Positions 1 through 19,143 of a DNA stretch of 33,744 nucleotides are shown here, piece after piece; positions within the stretch are counted from its first letter, which is position 1, and every line of letters starts with the position of its first letter. Below the pieces are notes generated by a model. That model saw only the letters and a program-made list of their open reading frames with translations. It searched no databases and was not told where the DNA came from. This stretch comes from an uncultured Clostridia bacterium. GTDB taxonomy: Bacteria; Bacillota; Clostridia; RUG12999. The DNA is taken from assembly GCA_949739095.1 (NCBI GenBank), contig CATIYX010000190.1:1-33744 (forward strand), given 5' to 3'. Position numbers and translations under genes: made by a program.

Positions 1-93
1 CCATAATAAATGATGTAATTGAAGTAAAAAAGGGCGTGTATTTGCACAAAACTTAAACAAATACAGTTAAGAGCAACAAAGAACACGCCGAGT
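1..93. repeat. Direct repeat copy A (may extend left of the window); partner at 2784..2876
   Basis: Hand alignment gives 84/93 identical positions with 2784..2876 in the same orientation (59/61 over the first 61 nt). Copy-to-copy distance is 2783 bp. Confidence 0.85.
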
Positions 94-205
94 TCGAGTG
101 ATGAAATGGGATTTTGGTGGGAGTGTTTGAGCGTGTATCCGACGAAAAAGGTGGGTAAGGTTACATTTGGAACAGAACTAAAAACTATGATTTTAAAGGA
201 GAATA

Positions 206-628
206 ATGATGAGTATAAGTGATATGTATAATGTTTATTTACAACAAACAAATGATAGTAGCAATAATGGATATGATGACCATACTGATTATGGAAGAGA
301 TTATGATGACCATTCTGATTGGTGTAGAGATAACCATAGTGATTGGGGAAGAGATTATGATGATTACTCTGACTGGTGTAGAGATTCAGGAAGGGATTAT
401 GATGACCATTCTGACTGGAGTAGAGACTCCCATTCTGATTGGGGATATGGAGATGACCATGATGATTCACATGATGACTATGATGATGAATCACATACAG
501 ATGAAAGCCATGATGACTACGATGACGAATCACATACAGATGAAAAACATGATGATAGTCATGATGATTATGATGATGAGTCACATGATGATGAGTCACA
601 TACGGATTATCATAATGATAGCTATTAA
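206..628 (+). CDS. Acidic His/Tyr/Trp-rich tandem-repeat peptide (140 aa); candidate RiPP precursor
   Basis: AGGAG lies 4-7 nt upstream of ATGATG. A 22-aa ordinary N-terminus is followed by 118 aa using only D,H,Y,S,W,G,R,E,T,C,N,K. Repeats are GRDYDDHSDW(C/S)RD and SHDDYDDESHTDE. The stop is 18 nt before the rSAM gene start. Confidence 0.7.
   Translation: MMSISDMYNVYLQQTNDSSNNGYDDHTDYGRDYDDHSDWCRDNHSDWGRDYDDYSDWCRDSGRDYDDHSDWSRDSHSDWGYGDDHDDSHDDYDDESHTDESHDDYDDESHTDEKHDDSHDDYDDESHDDESHTDYHNDSY
290..607 (+). repeat. In-frame tandem coding repeats inside the precursor gene
   Basis: A Trp/Arg module (about 3 copies of gattatgatgaccattctga(t/c)tgg(t/a)gtagaga-like units) is followed by about 3 copies of a 39-nt unit encoding HDDYDDESHTDE(S/K). 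Confidence 0.8.
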
Positions 629-646
629 TATTTAGGAGAAGTCGGT

Positions 647-1801
647 ATGGGATTGAATTTAAAGAAAATTAACTTACTTGTTATGCCTACGGATATTTGT
701 AACATGAATTGTATATATTGTTTTCACTCTGCTCATCATGAAAAAAGAGGAAAAATGAGTTTTGAAACATTAAAAAGGTTGTATGATATAACATGTTCTG
801 AGTATTCTGAAGTTACTATTATATGGCATGGCGGAGAACCACTGGTAATGGGGCTTGATTTCTATAGTAAAGCAATAGAAATGCAGAAGGATTATAAGGT
901 TATCATAAGAAATCGCATGCAAAGTAATTTGACATTATTATCAGATGATCTGTCTAAATTTCTCTGCAACAATAATATTGGGATAGGAACATCGTTTGAT
1001 GGTTGTACAAATGATTTAACAAGAGGATTTTCTCAAGAAATTCTTGAAGGAAGAAATAAAATTTTAAAAAATGGAAAACAGTGCGGGTTTATAATGGTTG
1101 TTTCAAATAAAAATATTGATAATCTTATTGAAAGTTATCATTTTTTTAAACGTATATGTGCCAATTATACAATTAATATGTATGTTTCCGATGGAAATCA
1201 AAAGGACGATATATTGAAACTAAATCCCAGACAAACAATAGAAAGGATTAAAGAACTATTTGACTATTGGATTTATGATAAAGAGTGTAATATACATATT
1301 GATTATTTTGAAAGGATTATAAATTTTTTGATTACAGGCGAAAAGAGCGTATGTAAATATAATTCTTGTTTGGGGAAATGGGTAGGAATAAGATATAATG
1401 GAGATATTGTACCTTGTAATAGATACTTTCCAGACAAGTATTGTTATGGAAATGTATGGGATTATAATAATTTATCTTCTGCCTTTGAGAGTAATGGTTT
1501 TGAAAAATTATTATTGGATGCTATTACAAGACGCGAAAAGTGCAAACAATGTATTGCTTTTCCTCTTTGTTCGGGAGGATGTAATAATGTGGCTCTTAAT
1601 GAAAATGGTGTTGATGAAAATGGTGGAGATAGTTGTGTGATTTTTAAGGAAATATATAAATATGTTATAGAAAAATCTATTAAGTGTATGAGACTAATCA
1701 AGGAAGATAATAAATATAATCCAATTTTTATTTCTATAATAAAGAAAAGAAATAAATTGGGAAAAGATTTTCATTATGATGTTTATTTAAATATACAGTA
1801 G
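647..1801 (+). CDS. Radical SAM enzyme with C-terminal SPASM domain (probable peptide-modifying maturase)
   Basis: Own RBS (AGGAGAAG). C18-x3-C22-x2-C25 (DICNMNCIYC) and GGEPL are present. SPASM pattern: NGDIVPC (G-x4-C), CKQCIAFPLCSGGC (C-x2-C-x5-C-x3-C), plus a further Cys (DSC). There are 9 Cys in the C-terminal domain. Confidence 0.85.
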   Translation: MGLNLKKINLLVMPTDICNMNCIYCFHSAHHEKRGKMSFETLKRLYDITCSEYSEVTIIWHGGEPLVMGLDFYSKAIEMQKDYKVIIRNRMQSNLTLLSDDLSKFLCNNNIGIGTSFDGCTNDLTRGFSQEILEGRNKILKNGKQCGFIMVVSNKNIDNLIESYHFFKRICANYTINMYVSDGNQKDDILKLNPRQTIERIKELFDYWIYDKECNIHIDYFERIINFLITGEKSVCKYNSCLGKWVGIRYNGDIVPCNRYFPDKYCYGNVWDYNNLSSAFESNGFEKLLLDAITRREKCKQCIAFPLCSGGCNNVALNENGVDENGGDSCVIFKEIYKYVIEKSIKCMRLIKEDNKYNPIFISIIKKRNKLGKDFHYDVYLNIQ

Positions 1802-1930
1802 CGGTAAATATTGTGATTATATACAATGTGATATAGTTGAAAATATAAAAGAAATTAGTGTTAGCCCCCAAATGGGTTGACGGTTATTTTCTGTAGTCCA
1901 TGTGTTAATAATGGTATTTTTATATTAAGG

Positions 1931-2502: not shown

Positions 2503-2730
2503 ATGGGGAAAAAGAAAAATAGCATTGTTCTATCAACAGCTAGTAATGTGTCGTTAGCTGATCAACTTCTTTCTGGCGAACGCAAAGGGATATTTGAACA
2601 AGGTTATGATAAACTTGGTCGACCTTTTCAAAAGAAACTTGACGATAAAGGGTTTTATACAAAAGAAGAAATTTTAAAAGACGGGACTCCTAAGCTTACA
2701 ATAAAGAAAATAAAATCGAAAAAGGGATAG
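2503..2730 (+). CDS. Small Lys-rich hypothetical protein (75 aa)
   Basis: GGAGG RBS 7-8 nt upstream of ATG. No recognisable motif. Confidence 0.45.
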   Translation: MGKKKNSIVLSTASNVSLADQLLSGERKGIFEQGYDKLGRPFQKKLDDKGFYTKEEILKDGTPKLTIKKIKSKKG

Positions 2731-2962: not shown

Positions 2963-3511
2963 TTAATTTTCTTGCAAAATATCTTGAAGCGCTGTTTGAA
3001 GTTCTTTCCGTAATAGCTTCATTCTTGTTTGTGACAGATGCAGAATATCCATAATCTCTTCAAAATCATATCCTTGTTTGATTAACAGATACATGTCGTT
3101 TGCAGTGGCTGAAACCTGATGGGAGACGGCTACGTTCATATCAACATCATCCAGTGCACGTATTGCTTTTGGGTCATCAAAGATATCGTAGGATGAGCCA
3201 TCAACGGTTCGCTGTTCTAAGGAATATATCTCTTGATAGGCAGCAGCATATTGTTTGATACTACTTTCCAAATGATTTTTAACAAAGTTGGTGGAGAATA
3301 TCCTGAATTTGTGTAAGTTTGGCTTATATTGCAGCACTGCCTGCAAAAAACCTTTCTGAGCAATCCCAAGACGGTCTTCTTTGGGAATTGTTCTAGCATA
3401 TTTTCGGTATAGATTCAGCAGTTCACCATGATATATGCGTAAGTTTTTGCATGGAGTCGCAGGAACGCACTGAGAAGCTATCTGTTTTGGAAGCGTTTTG
3501 AATATCTGCAA
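2963..3511 (-). CDS. Small sigma-70-family RNA polymerase sigma factor-like protein (182 aa if the TTG start is used)
   Basis: Region-2-like segment LNLYRKYARTIPKEDRLGIAQKGFLQAVLQY. C-terminal region-4-like HTH is GYDFEEIMDILHLSQTRMKLLRKELQTAL. The only in-frame start is TTG at 3511, with a weak RBS, and it overlaps the upstream ORF by 89 nt. Confidence 0.55.
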   Translation of the reverse strand: MQIFKTLPKQIASQCVPATPCKNLRIYHGELLNLYRKYARTIPKEDRLGIAQKGFLQAVLQYKPNLHKFRIFSTNFVKNHLESSIKQYAAAYQEIYSLEQRTVDGSSYDIFDDPKAIRALDDVDMNVAVSHQVSATANDMYLLIKQGYDFEEIMDILHLSQTRMKLLRKELQTALQDILQEN

Positions 3512-4123: not shown

Positions 4124-4191
4124 AGAATAGGGATATGTATAAGTGATGGTGAGCGTATGGGACAAGGAATTTGGTAGAAGAGGATATATTT

Positions 4192-6372
4192 ATGAAGAGA
4201 AACAGTAAAAAGATAGGTCTTATGTATATATGGATGCTTACTTATATGTGTGCAATGTTGGTGCCAGTTTGTGTTAATTTTATTTCATATAGTAACTTTT
4301 CTACAAAATTTGAGCAGGAAATTCAAAGCTATAATAATTTGTTGACAGAAAAAGTGCGAAGTGAATTTGACGAGCGGATTACCAATTATGTTCATTTTAT
4401 CTTTGCACTGGAAGAGGATGCGAGATTTCGTACCATTGCAGCATATCCGGAAAATATGAATAATAGTCAGTGGGCGGAAGTGAATGATTTTGTGCATGAC
4501 AGATTACGGCAATATGCAGGGCAAATTCCGCAGGATTTTAATATTATTTTAAAAAAATCAGGATTGGTGTTGAAAACGAATTATATTTCCAGCGGGAAAG
4601 TGGCATACCAAGTATGGGGAATGCCTTATGCAAAAACATACTCTGAGTGGATTGCAAAAGTAAACGGCAAATATAAATATGATTTCCAGCTTGATGAGGA
4701 ATATCGTTTTGTCTGCTGCCATACACTGTTTCCCGGAACCGAGTATGAAGTGACGCTTATTGCCACATTGGCGGATAAAGATATTTTGGATTTTGAAAAG
4801 AGTTTTAGCATGGAACAGGGACGTTCTTTGGCAATCTGCGCACGGAGCGAAAAGACAAAAATCGTTTTGGATGGCACAGAGTTGGAATTAAATTTCATGG
4901 AAAACAACAATGTTTCTGGTCATATTGTGCTTCAAAATGCAGATAGGTCAAAATATATTGCAATGTATGCAAAAAGTGCAATTATGGATTTAAACTATGT
5001 TATCATTACAGAAGATACTTTCTTTTACCAAGTGCAACAGCAGATGCGCAATGTTTGGCTGCTGACGATTCTTGCGAGTGTGATAGTTGGCATTGTATTT
5101 GCGATATTGTTTTCCTATTATAATTATGCACCACTACGCAAAATTGTAAAAATGTTTGGAAAACCCAAAGGAAAAAATGAGTATCAATATATCGAAACAC
5201 TGTTGCACCAGATGCAGTATTCACAGGCAAAATCAAAAAACGAAAGGCTGCTTGCGGAATATTTGGTGAGGTCTACCTATACGTCATATATGGAAGAACA
5301 GCTTAAAACAAACTATGGGATTGATGATGAAACCGATTTAATGGTTACCGTTATCTTTTTTCAGGATATTACCAAGTTTATATCAGAGGGGAATGTGGAA
5401 CGCGATTTTGAAGCGATGTGTTTTGCTGTGGAAAATGTGTTTAGCGAAATGATGACACAAGATGGTTGCAGAGTGAATATGACGTCAACAAAAGGCGCTG
5501 TTAATGCCGTGATTTGTGTAGAAGATAAAAAGCTGGTGCATGAACGGTTGGAACAGTTTGTAGAATTTTTGGAAGAACAGCTTCATATTTCGTGTTTTGT
5601 TGTATGTGGAGAATGTCTCAAAGGCGGAAAAAATATTTCGGAGTCCTACCGGCAGGCAATGGGGGTGTTGGATTATATGCTTTTTGTGGATGACAGCGAT
5701 GCTATTGGCATATATGATGTAAAAGAATCTGCATTATATGAAAAATATACGAAAAAAGTGGAACAGAAGATTTTGTTAGCGGTGATTGAAAATGAGCCTG
5801 AAAAGGTGAAGCTAGCGATTGATGAACTGTTCCGCTGTGGTCCTGCCAAACCTAAGCTATCAGAAGTGCAAATGATTCTAAAAACCATCACAGAAGCAAT
5901 TATTGCGAAGCTAAAAGAGCAGGAAAAAAACAGGAAGGTTGATTTTGGTGAATTGCAGGAAGGGATGAGAAGCAGTTCACTAGAGGAATATTATGAACAT
6001 TTGACAGAGTTTATGGATATGCATTACGAAAACGAAGAACATACGCAAGAGAAAAACTTTTTCAGACAAATTCAAGACTATGTAGATCAGAATATTTCCG
6101 ACCCGAATTTGACAAATGGCAAAATTGCAGAGAATTTTAACATCAGCGAGGTCTATTTGTCGCGGTATTTTAAAAGCAATTATTCTGATGGTCTGTTGAA
6201 TTATATCACCAAGAGTCGTGTGGAAATTGCAAAAAAGATTTTAAGAACGACAGAAAAGACAGTAAATGAAATTGCGGAAGAAGCAGGATTTGCAAACAGC
6301 CTGGCATTGCTTCGGGCGTTTAAAAAACATGAAGGCGTCACACCGACACAATTCAGAGAACTGCATAAATAA
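4192..6372 (+). CDS. Transmembrane AraC-family transcriptional regulator (one-component sensor)
   Basis: AGAGGA RBS 7 nt before ATG 4192. N-terminal TM segment (IGLMYIWMLTYMCAMLVPVCVNFI), about 260-aa extracytoplasmic region, second TM (VWLLTILASVIVGIVFAILFSYY). C-terminal AraC double HTH (ISEVYLSRYFKSNYSDGLLNYITKSRVEIAKKIL...NEIAEEAGFANSLALLRAFKKHEGVTPTQFRE). Confidence 0.8.
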   Translation: MKRNSKKIGLMYIWMLTYMCAMLVPVCVNFISYSNFSTKFEQEIQSYNNLLTEKVRSEFDERITNYVHFIFALEEDARFRTIAAYPENMNNSQWAEVNDFVHDRLRQYAGQIPQDFNIILKKSGLVLKTNYISSGKVAYQVWGMPYAKTYSEWIAKVNGKYKYDFQLDEEYRFVCCHTLFPGTEYEVTLIATLADKDILDFEKSFSMEQGRSLAICARSEKTKIVLDGTELELNFMENNNVSGHIVLQNADRSKYIAMYAKSAIMDLNYVIITEDTFFYQVQQQMRNVWLLTILASVIVGIVFAILFSYYNYAPLRKIVKMFGKPKGKNEYQYIETLLHQMQYSQAKSKNERLLAEYLVRSTYTSYMEEQLKTNYGIDDETDLMVTVIFFQDITKFISEGNVERDFEAMCFAVENVFSEMMTQDGCRVNMTSTKGAVNAVICVEDKKLVHERLEQFVEFLEEQLHISCFVVCGECLKGGKNISESYRQAMGVLDYMLFVDDSDAIGIYDVKESALYEKYTKKVEQKILLAVIENEPEKVKLAIDELFRCGPAKPKLSEVQMILKTITEAIIAKLKEQEKNRKVDFGELQEGMRSSSLEEYYEHLTEFMDMHYENEEHTQEKNFFRQIQDYVDQNISDPNLTNGKIAENFNISEVYLSRYFKSNYSDGLLNYITKSRVEIAKKILRTTEKTVNEIAEEAGFANSLALLRAFKKHEGVTPTQFRELHK

Positions 6373-6402
6373 CAGTAAATATACGCGTGAATAGAATCAT
6401 AG

Positions 6403-6458
6403 AAAGAAAGGACTGCATGTTTTCCAACCAAAATGGACATGCGGTCCTTTCTTTTATA
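6403..6458 (+). terminator. Rho-independent terminator after the AraC-type gene
   Basis: 18-bp stem: aaagaaaggactgcatgt (6403-6420) pairs with acatgcggtcctttcttt (6437-6454), with one G.U pair. The U-rich tail is cuuucuuuua. Confidence 0.8.
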
Positions 6459-6577
6459 AGATGAGTAAAAACGAATATCATGTTTAAATATTCCAAATAT
6501 AAAATTCCATAAATCCGCATTTTTCCTGATATTTAGTAAAAGGTTAAATATTGATAGCGCGGGTTAAGGATTGTCAG

Positions 6578-6607
6578 TTGACGGAAAGGGAGAAGTGGAT
6601 TTATACT
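6578..6607 (+). promoter_or_regulatory. Candidate promoter of the first glycan-utilisation operon
   Basis: TTGACG (6578-6583), 18-nt spacer, TATACT (6602-6607), 57 nt upstream of ATG 6664. Direct ATTCCA repeats at 6490-6495 and 6504-6509 lie upstream. Confidence 0.4.
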
Positions 6608-6663
6608 GGAACCATAGGAAGCGACAGATAAGAATACTAGAAAAAGAAATGGAGGAGAATTTT

Positions 6664-8178
6664 ATGAAAAAAAGAATCATCAGCTTTTTACTGCTGTTGG
6701 CGTTACTGTGCAGTTTGAGTACCGTGTGTGCAGAAGAAACAACACAAACAATGACGCCTTTTATCAGCGTAACACACGATGATGGAAATGCATCGCGTAT
6801 CACGTCAACAGACGCTACGCAGCCGGTCTCTTTGGGTAGCAAAGGATATATCAGGCGGCAGATTACCGTGTTGGATCTTTCCCAAATAAATGTGCCGGAG
6901 GGCATGATGTTGGACGAAGTGACCTATTCTTTGTATTGCACAGTGAATTTTGAAGTTGTAGATACAACGCTGGGTATTTATGCACTGGATTTGTCAAGTA
7001 TTGATTTTAGTGCTACAAGGCTGACGCAGGAGAATGTTCCGGAAAATGGAGAACTGATTGCTAGTTTTGCTATGCCGGCACGTCAAAACGATGCGGAACA
7101 ATATAATCAATATATGGATTTTGACTTGAGCGCATATGTGAAAGCGGCGATAGCGGAAGAAAAACAATATGTTGGTTTTGCGGTTGTGCAAACAAGCAGA
7201 TGTCAAAAAGGTGGCATGTATGTTGGTACGACCTATCATGAGAATCCGCCGAAAGTAACATTCGGGTTTCGGGAGCGCGGTGTGAGCGTAAAAAGCCGTA
7301 GTGTTTTAGGCGAAACAGATGGAGTACAGGATATGGAAAAAACGGTTGCCCCATGGATTAGTGTTACGCACGATGATGGAAACGAAGGGCGTTTCACTGA
7401 TACCGATATCAAGCAGCCGATATCTATGGGTAGCAAAGGATATACCAGACAACAGATTACCGTGCTGGATTTATCTACATTAGGCATCCCGGAAGGTACT
7501 TCACTGGAAGAAGCGGTCTACTCACTGTATTGCCGTATCAATTTTGAAGCTGTAGACACTGTACTTGGTGTTTATGAATTGGATCTTTCGGGCGTTGATT
7601 TGAGCGATGGATTAAAATATGCAGATGTTCCGGCGCGGGGGAACCAGATTGCCAGTTTTAACATGCCGGCACGGCAGGGGAGTGAGAGCTATAACAGATA
7701 TATGGATTTTGACTTGACGGAATACATCAATGCAGCCATAGCGGCGGGGAAACAATATGCAGGCTTTGCGATGATACAAACAAGTAGATGCTCAAAAGGC
7801 GGTATGGAAGTTGAAACGATTTATGGTACTAATACGCCCAAGCTGTCTTTGAAATATCAAGAAGTAGTATCAGGAAAAGCAGAACAAAACACTTTGAGCG
7901 AAGGCGAGTTGGAATACAACGTGACGCTACTGAATGAAACAAATGAAACAAAACAAGTGCGACTCATGTGGGCGGAAGTGCAAGGAAATGTTTGTACCAA
8001 AGTGGTTGCGGGAGAAGTCGTTTCATTGGAAGCAAATACGGAACAGACGTTAACTTTAACGCAGGCAGTGACAGATACGAACAGTATAGTACGTTTTTTT
8101 GCCGTAGAGGATATCGGCACAGTGATACGGCCACTCATAAATGAAAAATATGAACTGACGAAAGATGGATGGAAATAG
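6664..8178 (+). CDS. Secreted protein with two tandem ~168-aa homologous domains plus a C-terminal beta-sandwich-like region; possible carbohydrate-binding protein
   Basis: GGAGGAG RBS. Signal peptide MKKRIISFLLLLALLCSLSTVCA. Domain 1 and domain 2 are collinear (ISVTHDDGN...ITVLDLS...YSLYC..NFE.VDT.LG.Y.LDLS...YMDFDL..Y..AAIA..KQY.GFA..QTSRC.KGG). The track start at 6571 is an unsupported TTG extension. Confidence 0.75.
   Translation: MKKRIISFLLLLALLCSLSTVCAEETTQTMTPFISVTHDDGNASRITSTDATQPVSLGSKGYIRRQITVLDLSQINVPEGMMLDEVTYSLYCTVNFEVVDTTLGIYALDLSSIDFSATRLTQENVPENGELIASFAMPARQNDAEQYNQYMDFDLSAYVKAAIAEEKQYVGFAVVQTSRCQKGGMYVGTTYHENPPKVTFGFRERGVSVKSRSVLGETDGVQDMEKTVAPWISVTHDDGNEGRFTDTDIKQPISMGSKGYTRQQITVLDLSTLGIPEGTSLEEAVYSLYCRINFEAVDTVLGVYELDLSGVDLSDGLKYADVPARGNQIASFNMPARQGSESYNRYMDFDLTEYINAAIAAGKQYAGFAMIQTSRCSKGGMEVETIYGTNTPKLSLKYQEVVSGKAEQNTLSEGELEYNVTLLNETNETKQVRLMWAEVQGNVCTKVVAGEVVSLEANTEQTLTLTQAVTDTNSIVRFFAVEDIGTVIRPLINEKYELTKDGWK
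6757..7851 (+). repeat. Internal tandem domain duplication (6757..7263 and 7351..7851)
   Basis: Protein-level alignment by eye of the two segments. Identity is high at conserved blocks and is also visible at the nucleotide level (e.g. gtaacacacgatgatggaaa / gttacgcacgatgatggaaa). Confidence 0.8.
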
Positions 8179-8190
8179 GAGGGAATGGAA

Positions 8191-9774
8191 ATGAAACGAA
8201 TCATATGTTTAGTCCTTGCGCTGTGTATGCTTTGTATGGCGGGATGTACAAATCAGGAAAAACAAAAAGAAGCAGGGAGCACAAATCAGAAGTTGACTTA
8301 TTGGGTGGGAATGAACAGCTCTCAACTTACCACCATATCGAATTATGCAGAACTGCCGATGTATCAAAAATTAAGTGAAGAAACGGGTGTTGAAGTAGAA
8401 TTTATGCATCCGCCGACAGGGCAGGAAGCAGAACAATATAATTTGCTAATTGCCTCCGGCGATTATCCGGACATGATTGAACGGGGCTGGTCGACTGATG
8501 CAGGTGGTCCGGGGAAAGCAGTAGCGGACGGCATTGTTTTACCGCTGGATGATGCGATTAAAAATTATGCGCCGAACTATCAGGAGCTGCTGGAAAATAA
8601 TCACGAATTGAAAAAAGCATTTTCCACAGATGATGGTCAGATTTTTGCCTTCGGTGGTATTACCGTTATGCCGAAACTGAATCCGGGCGGATACTTCATT
8701 CGCAAGGACTGGTTGGAGAAACTCGGTATGGAGGCGCCAAAAAGCATCGAGGATTGGGAAGCCTATTTTGAAGGCTGTAAAACGCAGCTTGGCATAGAAA
8801 CGCCGTTTTCGACAGATTCCTATCGTATGAACTATGCAAAGTTATTCTCGGAAAGCTTTGGTATTGGCAGCAAATACTATATTGACGCAGCGGGAGAAGT
8901 GAAATATGCGCCTATGCAACCGGAATTTAAGGAATATCTCACGCTGATGAACAGTTGGTTTGAAAAAGGATATTTGGACAAAGGAATCTTTTCAAATGAT
9001 GCCAATATGGTAGAATCTAAAATCCTCAATTCCATGACAGGGTCCTTTTACGGCTTTATTGGCAGTACGTTCGGCAAACTTTTAGCTGCAGCGCCGGACG
9101 AACAGTTCCAGTTAATGGCGGTGGAAAGTCCTTCTCTAAAAAGCGGAGAAGCGGCGCAGCTTTACGTTACTAAACCCTATGGATTTGATGCATCGGCAGA
9201 TATGACATATAGTCTGACGAATACCACCGCATTTTCCACGAAAAACAAGGATTTGGAAAAATCGGCGAAATTTATGGACTATTTGTATACAGAAGAAGGA
9301 CGGAAGCTGAAAAACTTTGGTGTGCAGGACGTCAGCTACACCATGGTAGGGGATAAACCAACCTATACGGAAGAAATTTCAAACAATGCAGAAGGACGTT
9401 CCATGAATGAAATGATTGGAAAATATTGCAGAGCAACCTACCCCAATCCTGGGTTTGGCGACGACCCTTATTATATTGAACAGTATTATAAATATCCGCA
9501 GCAGCTAGAGGCTGTAGATATTTTCGCAGCCAATCTGGACCATGCAGTTGCATTCGACATGCCACCGGTGACACCGCTGGCAGAGGAGGTAACAGAAATG
9601 TCTACCCTGCAGGCAACTATTGACACTTATCAAGAAGAAATGTTTGCAAAATTCATCATGGGAACAGAATCGCTTGATAATTTTGATAAATATGTGGCGA
9701 CGCTGAAATCCATGAACATTGACCGCATTTTAGAGATTTATAAAAATGCAATGCAACGTTATGAAGCGCGGTAA
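8191..9774 (+). CDS. ABC transporter extracellular solute-binding lipoprotein (large carbohydrate SBP, LplA/YtcQ-like)
   Basis: AGGAGGG RBS 7 nt before ATG 8191. Lipoprotein signal with lipobox MAGC (MKRIICLVLALCMLCMAGC). About 525 aa. Followed by two permease genes. Confidence 0.85.
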   Translation: MKRIICLVLALCMLCMAGCTNQEKQKEAGSTNQKLTYWVGMNSSQLTTISNYAELPMYQKLSEETGVEVEFMHPPTGQEAEQYNLLIASGDYPDMIERGWSTDAGGPGKAVADGIVLPLDDAIKNYAPNYQELLENNHELKKAFSTDDGQIFAFGGITVMPKLNPGGYFIRKDWLEKLGMEAPKSIEDWEAYFEGCKTQLGIETPFSTDSYRMNYAKLFSESFGIGSKYYIDAAGEVKYAPMQPEFKEYLTLMNSWFEKGYLDKGIFSNDANMVESKILNSMTGSFYGFIGSTFGKLLAAAPDEQFQLMAVESPSLKSGEAAQLYVTKPYGFDASADMTYSLTNTTAFSTKNKDLEKSAKFMDYLYTEEGRKLKNFGVQDVSYTMVGDKPTYTEEISNNAEGRSMNEMIGKYCRATYPNPGFGDDPYYIEQYYKYPQQLEAVDIFAANLDHAVAFDMPPVTPLAEEVTEMSTLQATIDTYQEEMFAKFIMGTESLDNFDKYVATLKSMNIDRILEIYKNAMQRYEAR

Positions 9775-9828
9775 GAGATTGGCTTTGATAAAAGAGCGGT
9801 TTTAGAAAAATGAAAGGAAGAAAAAACT

Positions 9829-10779
9829 GTGTATGAATTGAGAGCAAGGAATGTGCTGCCGAACAAAAAGCACAAAGCGAGCATTTTAAAAGATTTACGG
9901 CGCGATGTATGGATTTATGTGCTTGCTGCGGTAGTGCTTGCGTATTACATATTGTTTCACTATTTACCAATGTATGGAGCAGTCATCGCCTTTAAAGAAT
10001 ATGATGTCGCAAAAGGCATTATGGGAAGTCCATGGGTGGGGCTGAAAAATTTTAAAGATTTTTTTAACGATTACTATTTTGTACGCTTGCTGCGCAACAC
10101 CTTATTGCTCAGTGTATATAACCTGTTGTGGTCTTTTCCGGCGACCATTTTGTTTGCACTGCTGCTCAATGAAATCCGGCAGGAAAAATTCAAAAAGGTG
10201 GTGCAAACCGTCACCTATCTGCCACATTTCATTTCCACCATTGTGGTATGTGGTATGTTGATTGACTTTTTGGCAGATGACGGATTGATTACGCAAATTG
10301 TGAAGTTGTTTGGCGGAGAGGGCAAATATTATCTGAACTATCCACAATATTTCCGCACGATTTATGTTTCCTCCGGTATTTGGCAGAGCATTGGCTGGGG
10401 CAGCATTATTTATCTGGCGGCGCTGTCAGGAATTGACACGGAGTTATATGAAGCGGCAACCATTGATGGCGCGGGGCGGCTGCGACAGACGTGGCACATC
10501 ACATTAACAGGGCTGCTGCCCACCATTGTGACACTGTTGATTTTGGAAATTGGTAAACTCATGAATTTGGGATATGAAAAAATAATATTGCTCTACAACG
10601 GCAATACCTATGAGACAGCGGACGTTATTTCTACCTATGTTTACCGGCTGGGGTTAGGAGCGTCAAGGCGGTATAGCTATACGACGGCAATTGGACTGTT
10701 TAACAGTCTTATTAACTTAATTCTGCTAGTCAGCGCAAACAAAATCAGCAAACGGCTAACGGATAACAGCCTGTGGTAA
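9829..10779 (+). CDS. Carbohydrate ABC transporter permease (LplB/YteP-like)
   Basis: Multiple TM segments. Characteristic N-terminus ...YLPMYGAVIAFKEY...GSPWVGLKNF. EAA loop EAATIDGAGRLRQTWHITL. GTG start. Confidence 0.85.
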   Translation: MYELRARNVLPNKKHKASILKDLRRDVWIYVLAAVVLAYYILFHYLPMYGAVIAFKEYDVAKGIMGSPWVGLKNFKDFFNDYYFVRLLRNTLLLSVYNLLWSFPATILFALLLNEIRQEKFKKVVQTVTYLPHFISTIVVCGMLIDFLADDGLITQIVKLFGGEGKYYLNYPQYFRTIYVSSGIWQSIGWGSIIYLAALSGIDTELYEAATIDGAGRLRQTWHITLTGLLPTIVTLLILEIGKLMNLGYEKIILLYNGNTYETADVISTYVYRLGLGASRRYSYTTAIGLFNSLINLILLVSANKISKRLTDNSLW

Positions 10780-10795
10780 GGGGGAGGAAATCGTC

Positions 10796-11668
10796 ATGAA
10801 GGTGAAAGAAAGTATAGGCAGAAGAATTTTTTGTAAGGTAAATATCTTTATCATGATTGGCATGATAGTGATTACGGCATATCCGCTGATTCATGTATTG
10901 TTTGCATCGCTGAGCGATTCTGGCGCACTGCTGAAACACAGAGGACTGCTGCTGTATCCGGTTGGATTTAATTTGAATGCCTACAGCGTAGTAATCAAAA
11001 ATCCCAATATTACCTCCGGCTATCTCACGACCATTTTTGTTGTGGTAAGCGGAACATTAATTAATTTATTTATGACGTCGATTGGGGCGTTTGTGCTCAG
11101 CAGAAGAACGCTGCGGGGCAGGCATTTCTTGATGGCAGTGATTATTATAACAATGTATGTCAGCGGCGGAATGATTCCCCGGTATCTCATCATCGCCAAC
11201 ACGTTGCATCTAAAAGATAGCTTGCTTTCGCTGATTCTGCCTGGCGCTATCTCAACGTATAACTTGATTATTATGAGGACCAATTTCATGCAAATTCCGC
11301 AGAGCTTAGAGGAAGCGGCACGCATAGACGGCGCGAACGATATTTCTATCTTGTTTAAAGTGATTTTGCCGCTGTCCGTACCGGTGCTTGCTGTGATGAC
11401 ACTGTTCTACGGCGTTTCGCACTGGAATGCGTGGTTTGACGCAATGTTGTTTTTGCGGGAGCGTAGCAAATATCCGTTGCAGCTCATTATGCGTGAAATT
11501 CTTATCAGCAACAGCGCCAGTGCGATGTCTGACAGTGGCACTTATGAGATTGGAGAAAGTATAAAATATGCTACGATTATTTTTACCACGGTTCCGATTC
11601 TTTTGGTTTATCCTTTTATTCAACGGTATTTCGTGAAAGGCATTATGATTGGTGCAATTAAGGGATAA
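10796..11668 (+). CDS. Carbohydrate ABC transporter permease (LplC-like)
   Basis: GGGGGAGG RBS. TM-rich. EAA loop EEAARIDGANDISILFKVILPLS. Confidence 0.85.
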   Translation: MKVKESIGRRIFCKVNIFIMIGMIVITAYPLIHVLFASLSDSGALLKHRGLLLYPVGFNLNAYSVVIKNPNITSGYLTTIFVVVSGTLINLFMTSIGAFVLSRRTLRGRHFLMAVIIITMYVSGGMIPRYLIIANTLHLKDSLLSLILPGAISTYNLIIMRTNFMQIPQSLEEAARIDGANDISILFKVILPLSVPVLAVMTLFYGVSHWNAWFDAMLFLRERSKYPLQLIMREILISNSASAMSDSGTYEIGESIKYATIIFTTVPILLVYPFIQRYFVKGIMIGAIKG

Positions 11669-11695
11669 ACGGCGATAATAAAGGAGGAAGAGGCT

Positions 11696-13339
11696 ATGAA
11701 AAAAATAGCGTTATGGTTATGTGTTTGCTTGGTTTGTGTCAGTGGGAGTGCATTTGCAATGGAAGCAAACATTAATTACGACACGAATTTGATTTCGGTG
11801 AATACATCGACGGAAGGTCAAAAAACGGCAGTTCTTGTGGTACGGAACAAGGAAACCGGCGCATATGAATATGCAGACCTTTTGTTTGCACAGGAGGAGA
11901 TGTTTTCCGCGGACCTAAAGCTGTCCGATGAGGCAGCAGAAGGTGAATATAGCGTTGTGCTGGTTCGGGCAAATGAAACGGAAGAAGAATTGTTTGACTT
12001 TGTGAATGTCAGTGAAGGAACGCGCAGCGCTATTGTACAGGCATTATCTAGTATTTTGAGCGATGCGAATGAGGCAAGCAGTGTGCAGAAGCTGAATGCT
12101 CTTGTGACGCAATATACATGGGCGCTTGGTATTGATACAGCAAAATATGGAGCGCTTTCCACCAAAGCTGATTTGATTGCGCTTTTGCAGGAAAAACCGC
12201 ATGCGACGTTTGCACAGATTATGGAAAGTTTTCCGGCAGCGTTGGACGAAGCATATGCCGCGTCAACAGGGGAAAAGATTCTGGAGGATATTAAAAGTGC
12301 AAGCAGTGCAGAAATTACTGGAATTTTGAAAGAAAACGCGGAGATTTTAGGAATTACATTGACGGAAGTATATGATAAATACCAGACCTATGTCAATGAA
12401 CGGCTGAAAAATACAGCGGACTTATCTATGGCAAATGTTGCAGAGAAATTTAATGCAATTATGGCGATTCCCTATCTGAACGCGGCATCGCGTAGTGACA
12501 TTGACCGCGTGATTCAGGAGCAGGACAAATATCTGGATATTTATGACACGATTCATAAAAACAACGCTGATGTTGTCGTTAAGATTTTGAAAAAACTGGA
12601 GGAAACAGAATTTCAGGAACGTTCAGAGATTCTTGCCGCCATCATTGAAGTGGTTGCAGAAGATAAAGCGGACCAGAAGAAAGAGCCTTCCGGTTTTGGC
12701 GGAGGGGGAGGAGGCACAAGAAGACCCAGTGCAGATATTGCTATTTCCGGTATACCGCCGATTTCGCCGCCGCCGGGTACAGTCTCCAATCCTACAGAGG
12801 AAACAGGCCGGTTTCATGATGTAAATTCTGTGCCATGGGCAGTAGAAAGCATTGAGAAACTTGCGGATATGGGAATTATCTCAGGGAAAGGTGAAAAAAC
12901 CTTTGCACCAAACGACCAAATTACCAGAGCGGAAGCGGTTAAAATTCTGGTTGGCGCATTTTCTCTGACAGAGGAATCGGACGTTGCATTCACAGACGTT
13001 GTGGCGGACAGCTGGGATGCGCCGTATATCCGTAAGGCGGTGGCAGCGAACCTGACGCTTGGGGACGGAAACGGTTATTTTCGTCCGGAAGATGTTATCA
13101 GCAGACAGGATATTGCCGTGATAATTTGCAGATTCATCGGCGGAGCGCGGACAGCAGAACTGCCGTTTGATGACAAGGATTCTATTGCAGAATATGCCAA
13201 AGAAGCAGTGGAAACGCTCTATAGCATGGGTATCATTTCAGGAAAAGATGATGGAAATTTTGACCCCTATGGTAATCTTACACGGGCAGAATGTGCAAAA
13301 ATGGTTTATGGTATCATCGCACAGCAGCAAAACGGGTAA
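11696..13339 (+). CDS. Cell-surface protein with C-terminal triple SLH (S-layer homology) anchor
   Basis: Signal peptide MKKIALWLCVCLVCVSGSAFA. Gly/Pro linker (GFGGGGGGTRRP...PPISPPPG). Three SLH motifs from about 12809 (FHDVNSVPWAVESIEKLADMGIISG...ITRAEAVKIL; FTDVVADSWDAPYIRKAV; ...GIISGKDDGNFDPYGNLTRAECAKMV). Confidence 0.8.
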   Translation: MKKIALWLCVCLVCVSGSAFAMEANINYDTNLISVNTSTEGQKTAVLVVRNKETGAYEYADLLFAQEEMFSADLKLSDEAAEGEYSVVLVRANETEEELFDFVNVSEGTRSAIVQALSSILSDANEASSVQKLNALVTQYTWALGIDTAKYGALSTKADLIALLQEKPHATFAQIMESFPAALDEAYAASTGEKILEDIKSASSAEITGILKENAEILGITLTEVYDKYQTYVNERLKNTADLSMANVAEKFNAIMAIPYLNAASRSDIDRVIQEQDKYLDIYDTIHKNNADVVVKILKKLEETEFQERSEILAAIIEVVAEDKADQKKEPSGFGGGGGGTRRPSADIAISGIPPISPPPGTVSNPTEETGRFHDVNSVPWAVESIEKLADMGIISGKGEKTFAPNDQITRAEAVKILVGAFSLTEESDVAFTDVVADSWDAPYIRKAVAANLTLGDGNGYFRPEDVISRQDIAVIICRFIGGARTAELPFDDKDSIAEYAKEAVETLYSMGIISGKDDGNFDPYGNLTRAECAKMVYGIIAQQQNG

Positions 13340-13348
13340 CGGAAAGGA

Positions 13349-15847
13349 ATGGTTATCAATATGAAATATTTAAAATTTAGCTGCATATTTCTGTTGCTGC
13401 TGCTTTCGTTCCAAATGGTTACGTTTGCCGAAGGAAACGCCGATGAAGAATTGTTGGTGCATTTGGGAATTGTGGACAGTGGATTCGCGCAGAAGGAAAG
13501 CGTTTCCAGAGCAGAATTTGCGCATATTGTCGTGAAATTCATGAATATTGAGCCGGTGGAGGCAAGAAAAATCTATGCGGATGTTGCAGAAAACCATCTT
13601 TATGCGGCAGATATTACGCTGTTGTCAGACTTGGGATATATTAATGGCGACGGAAGCGGAAACTATCATCCGGACGCAGCAATTGAAACTGCCCATGCAG
13701 CAAAAATTTTGGTTTGTGCGTTAGGATATCATCCTGTTTGTAGAATCAATAACAGTTTTTTGGCGCAGGCACAAAATCTGGGATTGTACAAAGGTGTCTC
13801 CGCGAACGGCGTGTTTGATGGGAAATCATGTGTAAAAATGCTGGGCAATGCCTTAAAAGCGCCGGTGCTGAAAACAAAAACGGTTGGTGAAACAATGACG
13901 TTCAATAATTCGGACAGTGGGGAAGCGCTGGTGGAATATTTTCATCTAAACTGGATAGATGGCGTTGTGACCAGCGTGAACGGCGCAAGCCTGACGGGAG
14001 CAGGAAACAGTAGTGGACAGATGACGGTTGGTGGATATACCTATCCTATCAAGGGTGAAAACTATGATAGCCTGCTGGGATACCGTGTGAAAGCATATGT
14101 GGACGAGGACGAAGGAGAAATTGTCTATTGCGAAGCCTACCGTAACAATGTGGTGGAAATTTTGGCGGACGATATCAATGAAAGCAAAACGACGCTGAAA
14201 ACTGTTTATACGGTCGATAATCAGAAATATAACATTTCCAGCAGCGCAGATTATCTGTACAATGGAAACGGTTATTTTGAAATCACCGCGGCGGATATGC
14301 TGCCGGAAACAGGCAGTATTACGTTAATAGACAACAATAATGACGGCACTTATGATGTAGTAAGTATCTATCATTATGACGTTTGTGCAGTCAATCTGGT
14401 GAACTATAACACGCGTACACTGACAGATTTCTATGGAAACACCATCCCATCTCTGGAAGAGTGCAAACGGATTGAAGTGCTCCGTGATGGGAAACAAATT
14501 AGCTTCAATGACATTTCACAGAGTCAGATTGCCTTAGTTGCAGTTGATAAAACAGGGCAGTTTGCAAAAGTGTTGGTATCTGACCAGAAGGCATCCGGCA
14601 TAGTGGAAGCGGTTGGAGAGAAAACTGTAGAACTGGGCGGTACAGAATATGAAATTGCACAGGGTCTGCTGAACAATGCAGAGGCAATGACGAAACTGTC
14701 TGCTGGCAATAAGGTGGATTTACGGCTGGACCCGTTCGGAAAAATTGCTTACATACGCTCCAGTACACAGGAAACAATGCATTATGGATACCTGATAAAA
14801 ATATCCTCGGACGGTGCATTTTTGAGCAATTTTGATATGAAAGTGCTATTGGACGACGGGCAGATTGACATTTTCAAGACTGCTACAAAAGTGAGATTAA
14901 ATGATAAAACGATGACGGAGGAAGCGGTAAAAAGCGCGTTTTGGGAATTTGGCGAATTTGTGCCGCAGATTATTAGATATCAAACAGATGAAAACGGGAA
15001 CATCCGAAATATTTATACAATAGGCAGCGATAGTGTGTCACTGGATTTTCCGTTTATGCAAAGGGCGCAGTCGGGCACACGCGTATTTGCAGCGGACGGC
15101 GATTTTATCTATAACTCCAATACAGTGATTTTCTCTGTGCCGAAGTTCACAGAAGATGCTGTAGATGAAGATTATTCTATTGCCGGTACCGTTTCCGGCG
15201 ACTATGCAACCTCTGAAATTGCTGCATATGACGTAGATGAATTTAATACGGCGGCAGCGGTTGTGCGAAGAAATGCAACAACAGCAAACAACGGAAAAAT
15301 TACCAATAATGATAAAAACTATAATCCGCTGTTGGTAGTGGACAAGGTAACACAGGGAATCAATGAAAAACGGGGAGAACCGGAATATCTTCTATATTGT
15401 CAAAGCAGAAACGGTACCTTGCGATATTTTGTCAGCAGTGAGAACTACCATTTGGTGGAAAATCTGAAAAAAGGCGATGCTATTATCATCAAATATAATG
15501 AGGCGACAGAATATGTGCTTGATGTGTATTTGGATATTGTAAATGCAGTGGATGCAAACGGATATACGCATAAGGATGAAGTTGTGTCCAGCACAGACGG
15601 TTCCCGCTGGTTTGAATGGATTTATGGAAAAGTGGATAGCCGGTATGGCGATATGATAAAAATATCGGATAAGGAGTCACCGTCAAAACCGTCAGATTAC
15701 CGTATCTATGCTGCGGGAGCGGCGAGAGTCATCATTGTGGGAAGCGAGGAAATCCGCTATGGCAGTCTGGCGGATGTGACACCGGGTAGCGAAATTGTGC
15801 TGCGGTCTAGAGGACCGAGTGTGATGGAAGTTATTATATATGAATAG
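13349..15847 (+). CDS. Large cell-surface protein with N-terminal SLH-like repeats; paralogue of 29574..32237; function unknown
   Basis: Signal peptide (MKYLKFSCIFLLLLLSFQMVTFA; the start could be 13361). SLH-like motifs (SVSRAEFAHIVVKFM; YADVAENHLYAADITLLSDLGYINGDGSGNYHPD). Collinear blocks are shared with the 29574 protein. Confidence 0.75.
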   Translation: MVINMKYLKFSCIFLLLLLSFQMVTFAEGNADEELLVHLGIVDSGFAQKESVSRAEFAHIVVKFMNIEPVEARKIYADVAENHLYAADITLLSDLGYINGDGSGNYHPDAAIETAHAAKILVCALGYHPVCRINNSFLAQAQNLGLYKGVSANGVFDGKSCVKMLGNALKAPVLKTKTVGETMTFNNSDSGEALVEYFHLNWIDGVVTSVNGASLTGAGNSSGQMTVGGYTYPIKGENYDSLLGYRVKAYVDEDEGEIVYCEAYRNNVVEILADDINESKTTLKTVYTVDNQKYNISSSADYLYNGNGYFEITAADMLPETGSITLIDNNNDGTYDVVSIYHYDVCAVNLVNYNTRTLTDFYGNTIPSLEECKRIEVLRDGKQISFNDISQSQIALVAVDKTGQFAKVLVSDQKASGIVEAVGEKTVELGGTEYEIAQGLLNNAEAMTKLSAGNKVDLRLDPFGKIAYIRSSTQETMHYGYLIKISSDGAFLSNFDMKVLLDDGQIDIFKTATKVRLNDKTMTEEAVKSAFWEFGEFVPQIIRYQTDENGNIRNIYTIGSDSVSLDFPFMQRAQSGTRVFAADGDFIYNSNTVIFSVPKFTEDAVDEDYSIAGTVSGDYATSEIAAYDVDEFNTAAAVVRRNATTANNGKITNNDKNYNPLLVVDKVTQGINEKRGEPEYLLYCQSRNGTLRYFVSSENYHLVENLKKGDAIIIKYNEATEYVLDVYLDIVNAVDANGYTHKDEVVSSTDGSRWFEWIYGKVDSRYGDMIKISDKESPSKPSDYRIYAAGAARVIIVGSEEIRYGSLADVTPGSEIVLRSRGPSVMEVIIYE

Positions 15848-15859
15848 GAGTGAGGATAG

Positions 15860-18800: not shown

Positions 18801-19138
18801 GAACGCGCTTTGCAACCGAGGGTGAACAATGGATTCAGTATGATTTGGAAGAAGTGAAGGAAATGGATAGCATTTCTCTCGCCTTCTATATGGGTGCTTC
18901 CAGACGCTACAATATGGGTATTCATCTCTCGGAGGACGGAGAAAACTACACAACGGTATTTGAGGGGAAAACTTCCGGTACCACGGAAAATCTGGAACGC
19001 TATACGTTCGATAAGCAACAGGCACGGTATATCAAGATTACTCTGAACGGTAACAATGAAAATGATTGGGGCAACTTGTCGGAAATTGCCTTTGAGTTCA
19101 TTGAGGATTCGCTGGCGCTTGCGGATGAAGAAGAATAA
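15860..19138 (+). CDS. Secreted multidomain heparinase II/III-like (polysaccharide-lyase fold) protein with C-terminal F5/8 type C (discoidin/CBM32-like) domain
   Basis: Signal peptide. N-terminal accessory beta-sandwich-like region (ADSYVSLSQPDTNYG...). Central motifs NNWNPVINGG, PDGGFPEGPSYWAY, SHADMDIGTFTF, VQGHNTLLF. Cadherin-like segment (IDGIQINGNPLEGFKPDKYVYNY). Discoidin-like end (DGDLGTRFATEGEQWIQYDL...ARYIKITLNGN..NDWGNLSEI). Confidence 0.75.
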   Translation: MMKRIALFLALVLLFSLSTPVIGAAPMELIYLPTADSYVSLSQPDTNYGEDAAAKIAVYSTNVRNIPYYSFDFTEERHDDIKFNEDLMSNNGIWYSFDVTATVKQYWSRTKRELHTALWIPWEANTDYSGTFATKESALNLPHLKITCSSDGKNVVKAVIYLFGGTISPTVELYETTGAFDEQTITYMKRPALRTKIGIGKKEQEMSGNVVDEAVVNSYEGKSIGTLTQTGMDKFETVVPDYPTWDEIYDARQVPSVEKLEEDYHKALPTKGHPRIYGNQADWERVRVLAEQGQEAILKWKETILSAAEIAVARGVPTYYIRSTGDIDQRGSDIGTLGMAYQLTKDKRYSDACYAHLKAVAEYPDWNNGGAAQLNLGDCCLNVGLGYDLIYETMTEAQKKDIVSGALKNGLYIMQGAPNTGTNNWNPVINGGAAVLACALLDEETDVCLEIVRQSIANIPIALLEYYPDGGFPEGPSYWAYMLDNFANFLAAVNYTFGQDYGVGDFQGISTTGFYPIYLQGPTPTIRFKYGDDRTKYIASKSLFYLARRFDAPVFAKYQLDLAETLNDFSTIAPYWYCEDTLFDNTVSVYDTLDKDKTFDGQSPIGTMRSNWEDENALFAGFKAGFPQTSHADMDIGTFTFAANGIEWGCDLQSVGGDYSRPGYYSLFRHTRYLYYERSVQGHNTLLFDPGRTYPAIEFGQEPNSYSTIEKAEFTQGQAPYVIMDISDAYRRYATKVRRGISLINNRREFLVQDEIWSEGNHTVYWSMHTKADVEVNGDEAILTQGDKRLYCKILSPGNASFDVMDAKPLPMTATTGGYDQRTSQDYQKLYVKCDYENRTTLSIWMVPLTWGDDIPTSTPQMKRLDNWPLEQKENVTIDGIQINGNPLEGFKPDKYVYNYISGSADFDYKVICSDETVDVKTEYSQGYLRILCKDKTGKKSDTRYLISATKKAEESKYKVEASYVPQPENAPSMTMDGDLGTRFATEGEQWIQYDLEEVKEMDSISLAFYMGASRRYNMGIHLSEDGENYTTVFEGKTSGTTENLERYTFDKQQARYIKITLNGNNENDWGNLSEIAFEFIEDSLALADEEE

Positions 19139-19143
19139 AGGAT

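Follow-up and report, generated by a model that had tools for sequence, protein, structure and literature searches.

What becomes of an extremely acidic, repetitive peptide whose gene stands directly upstream of a radical S-adenosylmethionine (SAM)/SPASM enzyme gene in contig CATIYX010000190.1 of an uncultured Clostridia bacterium? The whole stretch of DNA analysed here, the window, is this complete contig of 33.7 kb (33,744 nucleotides, nt); it belongs to a metagenome-assembled genome that is 85% complete, and mouse-gut metagenomes contain DNA near-identical to it. An earlier note, made from the letters alone, had described the peptide as a bipartite repeat core, a Trp/Arg/Cys module followed by a His/Asp/Glu array, and had considered a multi-core precursor, a recognition or solubility role for one half, and metal chelation. 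Our analysis makes it very probable that the peptide is the precursor of a peptide made on the ribosome and modified after translation (RiPP) and that the adjacent enzyme modifies it. For the modification itself we favour, at a probability of roughly 60%, ring formation between the aryl group of residue i and the beta-carbon of residue i+2, that is, three-residue cyclophanes like those of triceptides. The parts of the two-gene unit are listed below by window position; both ribosome-binding sites were read from the sequence.

197-201, forward strand: AGGAG ribosome-binding site of the peptide gene, 4 nt 5' of the ATG at 206 and 7 nt 5' of the ATG at 209
206-628, forward strand: precursor peptide gene, stop included; 140 amino acids (aa) with both Met, 139 aa from the ATG at 209
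206-247, forward strand: leader, residues 1-14, motif D-M-Y-x-x-Y-L-x-Q, a putative recognition element for the enzyme
272-451, forward strand: core part 1, residues 23-82; triplets in register, Y-D-D / H-S-D / W-(C/G/S)-R, interspersed with short spacers; every Trp, Cys and Arg lies here
458-607, forward strand: core part 2, residues 85-134, a ~13-aa tandem unit of H-D-D / Y-D-D / H-T-D triplets with E-S or E-K between them
608-625, forward strand: C-terminal tail Y-H-N-D-S-Y; the near-clade alignment keeps the ending H-x-D-(S/N)-Y
634-638, forward strand: AGGAG ribosome-binding site of the radical SAM gene
647-1801, forward strand: radical SAM/SPASM peptide maturase, 384 aa (Pfam PF04055 and PF13186)
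1859-1892, forward strand: terminator-like hairpin (1859-1882) and T-run, closing the two-gene operon

Is the peptide gene real? The repetitive DNA offers several readings, and the translation of the open reading frame (ORF) at 206-628 is the one in which residues 29-134 correspond exactly to window positions 290-607. Comparison with the orthologue at locus L043 supports this frame, because the differences lie mainly at third codon positions (12, 9 and 30 at positions 1, 2 and 3; of the codon changes, 24 are synonymous and 15 non-synonymous), and as judged from such sequence comparison the peptide is a genuine coding sequence under selection. The ORFs at 3-599 on the reverse strand and 219-635 on the forward strand are by-products, mirror or shifted readings of the GAT/CAT-rich repeat DNA. 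Within the window's own repeats, the divergence at third positions that had been remarked on earlier is likewise present, in small numbers: between the three 13-aa units and between the three GRDYDD(H/Y)SDW units, the changes are mostly synonymous ones of the GAT/GAC, TAT/TAC, GAA/GAG and AGA/AGG kind. The second ATG (209) is probably the true start, since the AGGAG lies at 197-201, the orthologous peptides open with one Met only (MSI...) and residue 2 is where the ESM Atlas entry begins. The gap of 18 nt between the peptide stop and the enzyme start suggests that the two genes form an operon.

The peptide contains 46 Asp, 20 Ser, 15 His and 14 Tyr in 140 residues; 52 acidic residues stand against 7 basic ones, for a net charge of -45 and a calculated isoelectric point of ~4, and the chain is predicted to be disordered (ESM Atlas model, predicted local distance difference test score (pLDDT) 0.42). 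It has no named family in Pfam, NCBIfam (up to E = 10), PADLOC or PHROGs, and the ESM Atlas gave zero feature matches and only low-scoring, meaningless structure rows. A search of a 5.8-billion-protein database returned three and then six relatives, all unnamed or 'hypothetical'. Because gene callers mostly miss such ORFs, the precursors compared below were read straight from the DNA upstream of enzyme homologues.

What is the repeat built of? All five Trp (39, 47, 57, 71 and 79), both Cys (40 and 58) and all six Arg (31, 41, 49, 59, 63 and 73) lie in residues 29-82, as the earlier note had it, and its first module corresponds to 290-451. Residues 85-134 do form the array it had described, with a period of ~39 nt or 13 aa, dense in His, Asp and Glu and devoid of Trp, Arg and Cys; Tyr is also part of this array, whose sole Lys is Lys 114. 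The peptide also ends in ...HNDSY as read before. Tandem Repeats Finder placed a period of 39 (2.5 copies, 83% matches) at 469-567 and periods of 54 and 42 (~2 copies, 85-86% matches) at 275-426. By their sequence, the two modules are two sub-repeat families of one aromatic-x-(Asp/Arg) motif, hence the bipartite look. The claim of a precursor stands insofar as it concerns a RiPP-type precursor, since a radical SAM/SPASM gene follows in the homologous loci; its other part, two functionally distinct halves (a core and a recognition, solubility or metal-binding part), is not borne out in that form: both halves are built of aromatic-x-(Asp/Arg) triplets, and recognition would fall to the separate N-terminal leader (residues ~1-14), which is conserved across the enzyme family.

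The spacing within the triplets is the evidence on which the proposed chemistry turns. In the window peptide, 30 of the 32 aromatic residues (His, Tyr and Trp) have Asp, Asn or Arg two positions on, at +2, for a z of 6.6 relative to composition-preserving shuffles; position +1 shows no enrichment and position +3 is depleted. The triplets abut without overlap, as in Y-D-D / H-S-D / W-C-R. Over all 17 precursors, the +2 motif occurred 299 times against 145 expected (z = 18.8), a figure to be read with care, as shuffling inside tandem repeats exaggerates independence. A fair test comes from the non-repetitive distant set: in six such precursors, whose enzymes are 33-48% identical to that of the window, Asp or Asn stood at +2 for 24 of 26 His where 5.4 were expected, a count that not one of 3000 shuffles attained. 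Within the near clade, Asp followed at +2 for 122 of 124 His and 63 of 91 Tyr, and Arg for 24 of 34 Trp, the middle residue of the latter being Cys, Gly or Ser. The middle residue of the triplets varies freely in the precursor comparison. A reaction confined to positions 1 and 3 would lead one to expect this.

Does the peptide belong with the enzyme? Relatives of the enzyme number at least 275 at E <= 1e-20 in a 90%-clustered database, with the best 120 all 45-84% identical, and more than 150 clusters at 50% identity outscore the anaerobic sulfatase-maturating enzyme (anSME) against the enzyme-family profile. The DNA upstream of 20-odd homologous enzymes was read, and in each case of 33-84% enzyme identity a small ORF with the shared leader and a His/Asp-rich core precedes the enzyme gene (L002-L006, L040, L043, L045-L049, L051, L054, L055, L064 and L134-L137). 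Flanking genes differ from locus to locus. The window's downstream genes, encoding a helix-turn-helix (HTH) protein, a Lys-rich 75-aa protein, a sigma-like protein and a 156-aa protein, turned up in none of the homologous loci, and no protease, exporter or second enzyme is common to the homologous loci compared. Since all other neighbours change between loci, the conserved unit is the peptide plus the enzyme. The leader motif (E/D)(L/M)(Y/F)xxY(L/M/I)xQ is present in 17 of 17 His-x-Asp precursors and is shared by 8 sister precursors rich in Cys, the enzymes of which are only ~30% identical to that of the window. That the radical SAM/SPASM gene follows the peptide gene in the homologous loci is the reason why a precursor destined for post-translational modification is so probable.

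This pairing bears directly on the idea that the peptide is an unmodified, acidic, His-rich protein that binds or buffers metal and merely adjoins a radical SAM gene of unrelated function. His-x-Asp is a common spacing of metal ligands, and such a role would suit a chain predicted to be disordered in which 15 of the 140 residues are His and 52 are acidic. We nevertheless consider it very improbable. The adjacency of peptide and enzyme is kept in more than 20 loci across 30-84% enzyme identity while the other neighbours change; a leader unrelated to metal binding stays with the enzyme family, Cys-rich and hydrophobic cores notwithstanding; and the short members of the family carry only 3-6 His.

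The sister precursors come from a family of radical SAM/SPASM enzymes at L056-L061, L063 and L065, ~30% identical to the window enzyme, each with a ~100-aa peptide encoded just upstream. These peptides have the leader L-T-x-x-Y-M/E-S-Q-S-P-x-A-F and a Cys-rich, hydrophobic core that ends in C-C-C-Y...G-F-x-G-x-W-x-Y-W-P-F. On this comparison, recognition of the leader by the enzyme appears to be older than the chemistry of the core.

Which part of the core is general? The two modules are not equally conserved. The Trp-x-Arg/Cys module is missing from the L040 peptide, the partner of the closest enzyme (84% identity) with a near-identical leader, and from all basal short precursors; in the enzyme tree, L040 falls inside the clade whose members carry this module, and the short His-x-Asp peptides are basal. 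His-x-Asp is found family-wide and the Trp/Arg/Cys module is optional, an outcome that the earlier note had itself named as speaking against its reading of the two modules. Repeat number does vary among the homologues, in both modules, with 112-aa orthologues short of a Trp/Arg unit of 14 aa and a His/Asp unit of 13 aa. His-x-Asp and Tyr-x-Asp would be the ancestral, family-wide part, and Trp-x-Arg, in which the middle residue is small (Cys, Gly or Ser), the add-on of one sub-clade. Because only His keeps its +2 preference in the distant precursors, the family rule would thus be His-x-Asp/Asn, with Tyr-x-Asp and Trp-x-Arg as additions of the long-repeat sub-clade.

Cys is dispensable in the precursor because the L043 orthologue has none; the others have C, G or S at that position. 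This weighs on a further possibility, a thioether from Cys sulfur to the beta-carbon of Asp, like that of ranthipeptides or of QhpD. The peptide does have two Cys beside Asp-rich sequence, and PapB (85 bits) and QhpD (58 bits) are among the NCBIfam matches of the enzyme; with Cys unconserved across the family and part 2 free of it, however, such a thioether is scarcely credible.

The enzyme has the radical SAM motif CX3CX2C at C18/C22/C25 and eight auxiliary Cys (236, 241, 257, 299, 302, 308, 312 and 330; invariant across 33 homologues), which by their number would be enough for two auxiliary clusters. It lacks an N-terminal RiPP recognition element (RRE) domain. Its scores all lie below the NCBIfam cut-offs, here in bits over cut-off: anSME (TIGR03942) 144.6/349.45, DynA 139/450, TIGR04083 132/300, DarW 105/650, DarE 95/650, GrrM/OscB 86/310, PapB 85/340, AmcB 73/425, YhhB 65/445 and HxsB 48/370; QhpD gave 58 bits and XyeB 14.6 bits, the latter over a fragment only. 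The best RiPP-type matches are ring-forming enzymes, with DynA at the top. A sequence search of the PDB found anSME closest (E 1e-30; by profile 1e-49) and ChlB a distant second (E 1.7e-5). The AlphaFold model (pLDDT 89.6) gave the same order, with template-modelling (TM) scores of 0.79-0.83 to anSME and 0.75-0.78 to ChlB, the second best; CteB and SuiB scored lower.

Could the enzyme then carry out radical chemistry that closes no ring, such as epimerisation, an anSME-like oxidation of Ser or some other change to an Asp side chain? In both sequence and fold anSME is the nearest relative, and in S-D-W-x-R, the Ser of which would be a candidate site, Ser and Arg are spaced as they are in the sulfatase motif (C/S)-x-(P/A)-x-R. 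We regard this as improbable on four grounds. Asp277 of anSME, which lies in the sequence P-C-D and is said to be the catalytic base, aligns with an Asn (N258, in P-C-N) that is invariant in the enzyme family. Neither L040 nor any basal precursor has S-D-W-x-R, and most members of the family lack it. His is strictly coupled with Asp/Asn at i/i+2, which speaks for a reaction that involves two residues. Finally, the genome has a genuine anSME of its own on another contig (C412; 414.6 bits for a cut-off of 349), in which P-C-D is kept. The window enzyme as the sulfatase maturase of this genome was also rejected, given its score of ~144 bits below the cut-off, P-C-N in place of P-C-D, and the genuine anSME on C412.

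Strict i/i+2 coupling of aromatic residues with Asp, Asn or Arg, beside an RRE-less, anSME-like radical SAM/SPASM enzyme, is why three-residue cyclophane formation is favoured here. In the proposed sequence of events, the enzyme would bind the N-terminal leader D-M-Y-x-x-Y-L-x-Q and then work along a core of ~30 aromatic (His/Tyr/Trp)-x-(Asp/Arg) motifs. Most likely, the 5'-deoxyadenosyl radical would strip the third residue of a hydrogen at its beta-carbon, and the resulting carbon radical would couple to the aromatic ring two residues upstream, at C2 (or N) of His, C3 of Tyr or a benzo-ring carbon of Trp. The product would then consist of small three-residue cyclophane rings in a row, like those of triceptides and dynobactin.

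Related couplings have been described for published enzymes. YxdB joins Tyr-C3 to the beta-carbon of Asp, and OscB and XncB join Trp to the beta-carbon of Asp, Asn or Arg (PMC11002830; PMC11499958); HaaB, YhhB and HtkB join His-C2 to the beta-carbon of Ala, Arg or Lys (PMC11002830; PMC11499958). Dynobactin has a link from His-N to the beta-carbon of Tyr (PMC11002830, PMC11499958, PMC12912966), and MicB alone processes the Tyr, His and Phe motifs of a single peptide (PMC12912966). Enzymes of the DarE type and those that form three-residue cyclophanes are anSME-like and of common origin (PMC10288494; PMC12912966), and cyclophane synthases and DarE resemble anSME more than they resemble other RiPP enzymes (PMC10288494).

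The dynobactin link shows what the same pair might do differently. The bond could run from the imidazole N of His to the beta-carbon at +2, a C-N bond as in dynobactin, or the His-x-Asp triplets could be the only ones modified; in the second case the Trp-x-Arg/Cys units would be spacers, solubility elements or protease sites that release pieces of 8-10 residues. DynA is indeed the top RiPP-type match at 139 bits, His alone shows the +2 preference family-wide, Arg or Lys occurs every 8-14 residues in part 1 and almost never in part 2, and the Trp/Arg module is dispensable in L040. Yet the DynA score is far under its cut-off of 450, the Trp of the near clade, with Arg at +2 in 24 of 34 cases and a small middle residue, resembles a substrate motif, and a protease is not conserved nearby. 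We hold this version of the chemistry to be unlikely.

Several observations weigh against three-residue cyclophanes. We observed the gene pairing, the conservation of the leader, the motif statistics and the class of the enzyme; we infer the bond type, solely from motif spacing and enzyme kinship, and also the number of motifs modified and the function of the product. The enzyme passes the cut-off of no cyclophane synthase family, and its nearest relative in sequence and in fold is anSME, an enzyme of different chemistry. Tyr and Trp show no significant +2 preference in the six distant precursors, so modification of Tyr-x-Asp and Trp-x-Arg is less well supported than that of His-x-Asp; the distant set that makes the fair test is small, at 26 His. 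A protease for the leader and an exporter are not conserved nearby. Some thirty directly abutting rings would be unusually dense, and many sites may stay unmodified.

Few species-representative genomes carry the enzyme: it is missing from all 40 close relatives of the window's genome, and in a same-class sample a match at E <= 1e-70 occurred in 2 of 399 genomes, one of them the window's own. Named matches came from metagenome-assembled genomes of Blautia, Lachnoanaerobaculum, Lachnospiraceae, Ruminococcus and 'Bacillota', together with Anaerospora and Variimorphobacter saccharofermentans MD1, the latter a cultured carrier of a homologous pair.

Some of the homologous loci depart from the simple arrangement of the window. 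L134 and L135 (enzymes P0052 and P0054, 52-53% identical) have two tandem precursors of 43-51 aa with 3-4 His-x-Asp triplets each. Their neighbours are relaxase, RadC, DUF932, YqaJ and HTH genes, a context like that of a conjugative element or a prophage; the assembly collection lists P0052 in 109 blocks, and this short-peptide version is accordingly widespread. At L043, a B12-binding radical SAM enzyme and a second SPASM radical SAM enzyme are encoded directly upstream (L043:46-3485), and neither has a counterpart in the window's genome (85% complete). L045 (2625-6009, downstream) and L046 (1233-4609, upstream) share a block with an energy-coupling factor (ECF) transporter S component, DUF6273, an ATP-grasp protein and a methyltransferase. 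At L004 and L048, of the Variimorphobacter type, the precursor ORF is ~228 aa long and the leader S-I-D-S-L-Y-E-K-Y-I-K-Q stands ~110 residues in, behind a non-repetitive N-terminal part; this reflects either a wrongly called start or a precursor fused to an extra N-terminal domain. Radical SAM relatives of 35-37% identity at L044, L052, L053 and on the viral contigs L138-L140 follow directly after a 234-aa ORF that, judged by eye from its translation, looked like a cell-wall amidase; some are on viral contigs of IMG/VR, and a His/Asp-rich small ORF was not found upstream at L044, L052 and L053. A phage or plasmid origin of the window pair was rejected, with no match at E <= 1e-40 in phage and plasmid records and IMG/VR relatives at most 37% identical. 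The same holds for identity as a defence system, for which PADLOC gave generic viperin similarity only.

Around the pair, the window has the following repeat copies, which are context and lie outside the peptide system.

1-93, forward strand: ~107-nt multi-copy repeat, copy 1, cut by the contig end
2784-2876, forward strand: ~107-nt multi-copy repeat, copy 2, 90% identical to 1-93

These direct copies bracket a 2.7-kb cassette of the peptide, the radical SAM enzyme, a 79-aa HTH protein and the Lys-rich 75-aa ORF. Further copies lie elsewhere in the source genome, at C234:7750-7837 on the reverse strand and C390:2618-2707 on the forward strand. In gut metagenome contigs, words of the repeat reach a depth of 300-900 against 4-6 for the cassette and run into many different continuations; this identifies a multi-copy element and explains the contig break. 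The repeat gave no Rfam match and was not found beside homologous cassettes elsewhere; it could be the end of a mobile element, an insertion-site repeat or a small RNA. The 205-nt stretch 5' of the peptide gene has no credible Rfam match and folds no better than shuffled sequences. In metatranscriptomic run X23, one 168-nt contig matches the peptide gene at 323-490 with one mismatch, and the enzyme gene is uncovered; this is a weak hint of precursor transcription, too weak to call, and DNA carry-over is possible.

Beyond the cassette, a palindromic hairpin with a perfect 20-bp stem lies at 2898-2942 between the convergent genes at 2503-2730 (forward) and 2963-3511 (reverse). It is probably a bidirectional terminator, and it gave spurious microRNA-like Rfam matches on both strands. 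Positions 4171-21024 hold an ordinary polysaccharide-utilisation cluster, which encodes a regulator of the AraC type, CBM96 proteins, an ABC transporter for sugar (substrate-binding protein and two permeases), a protein with an SLH domain and a heparinase II/III-like lyase of 1092 aa that includes an F5/8 type C domain; next, at 21483-22145, comes a TetR regulator.

What would ring formation in this peptide mean? If three-residue cyclophanes are indeed formed, the family would represent a branch of anSME-like radical SAM peptide maturases that is uncurated and apparently uncharacterised, in which at least 120 clusters at 90% identity share at least 45% identity with the window enzyme. The His-x-Asp/Asn rule would extend three-residue cyclophane chemistry to a new residue pair, and one sub-clade would use this chemistry at unusual density, with ~30 sites and three types of aromatic residue in one peptide. 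Should the family prove to be the published YxD family, the finding would reduce to a new, extreme member of it. The metal binding proposed in the earlier note is a minority possibility, and one that gains in interest if rings pre-organise the His/Asp chelating sites: stapled His-x-Asp rings would fix imidazole and carboxylate in ~20-30 such sites, making the product a protein-sized metallophore or metal buffer of gut anaerobes, which we regard as a long shot. The short-peptide relatives on DNA resembling conjugative elements could be a portable version of such a metal function or have a role in genetic conflict. As a two-gene system of gut Clostridia, the pair is well suited to the study of how one enzyme reads many abutting motifs and of metal binding by poly-stapled acidic peptides.

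How does the pair compare with known systems? Membership of the ranthipeptides (PapB type) was rejected, as Cys-x(n)-Asp/Glu pairs are not conserved and the PapB score is 85 of 340 bits. In the HXS antiphage system, HxsA carries His-x-Ser repeats and is accompanied by HxsB, HxsC and HxsD; the system requires two radical SAM proteins together with HxsD, and HxsA is basic, exported and peptidoglycan-binding (PMC13128918). The likeness is that of a tandem His-x-(small residue) repeat protein matured by radical SAM enzymes. Unlike HXS, the window has a single enzyme and an extremely acidic His-x-Asp peptide without an export signal, and membership was rejected, since HxsB matches the N-terminal radical SAM core only (48 of 370 bits) and a second radical SAM protein and HxsD are absent from the cassette.

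With anSME (PDB 4K36-4K39) the window enzyme shares the closest sequence and fold, equal length, a three-cluster architecture and the lack of an RRE. It differs in scoring 144.6 bits against a cut-off of 349, in the invariant Asn in place of Asp277 and in having a dedicated peptide partner rather than a sulfatase. DynA and DarE are likewise anSME-like radical SAM/SPASM enzymes without an RRE, and they form i/i+2 rings that include a link from His-N to a beta-carbon. Their precursors are short, single-core, Gram-negative and Trp-centred and lack acidic repeats, whereas that of the window is a 140-aa acidic repeat. Assignment as a daropeptide or dynobactin maturase was rejected on the scores (DynA 139/450, DarE 95/650, DarW 105/650) and because the precursor has no short Trp-centred core.

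Among the triceptide systems (XncB, OscB/GrrM, MscB, YxdB, HaaB, YhhB, HtkB, ChlB and MicB), two defining features recur in the window, namely aromatic-x-x motifs downstream of a leader and an adjacent radical SAM/SPASM enzyme; by cut-off, the maturase falls outside the XyeB/XncB, GrrM/OscB, YhhB and AmcB families. It scores under every curated cyclophane-synthase cut-off and is nearer in sequence to anSME and DynA than to GrrM, AmcB, YhhB or XyeB. The ~30 abutting motifs in a 140-aa peptide of net charge -45 are far denser than in the characterised examples in the accessible literature, where we found no account of His-x-Asp in the role of dominant motif. In YxD triceptides, YxdB joins Tyr-C3 to the beta-carbon of Asp in YxdA (review PMC11002830), and the window family may be the YxD family; YxdB (WP_226048651.1) is not among the accessions shown for nine homologue clusters, five of which showed none, and no model named for YxdB is among the NCBIfam matches. 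In common with triceptides, the window has a precursor with an N-terminal leader and repeated aromatic-x-x motifs, and a single RRE-less radical SAM/SPASM maturase encoded beside it. The fold of that enzyme is close to that of ChlB (TM 0.75-0.78). The third position of its motifs is occupied by Asp, Asn and Arg, the residues known to be cross-linked at the beta-carbon in triceptides, where a single enzyme can act on aromatic residues of several kinds (PMC11002830, PMC11499958, PMC12912966).

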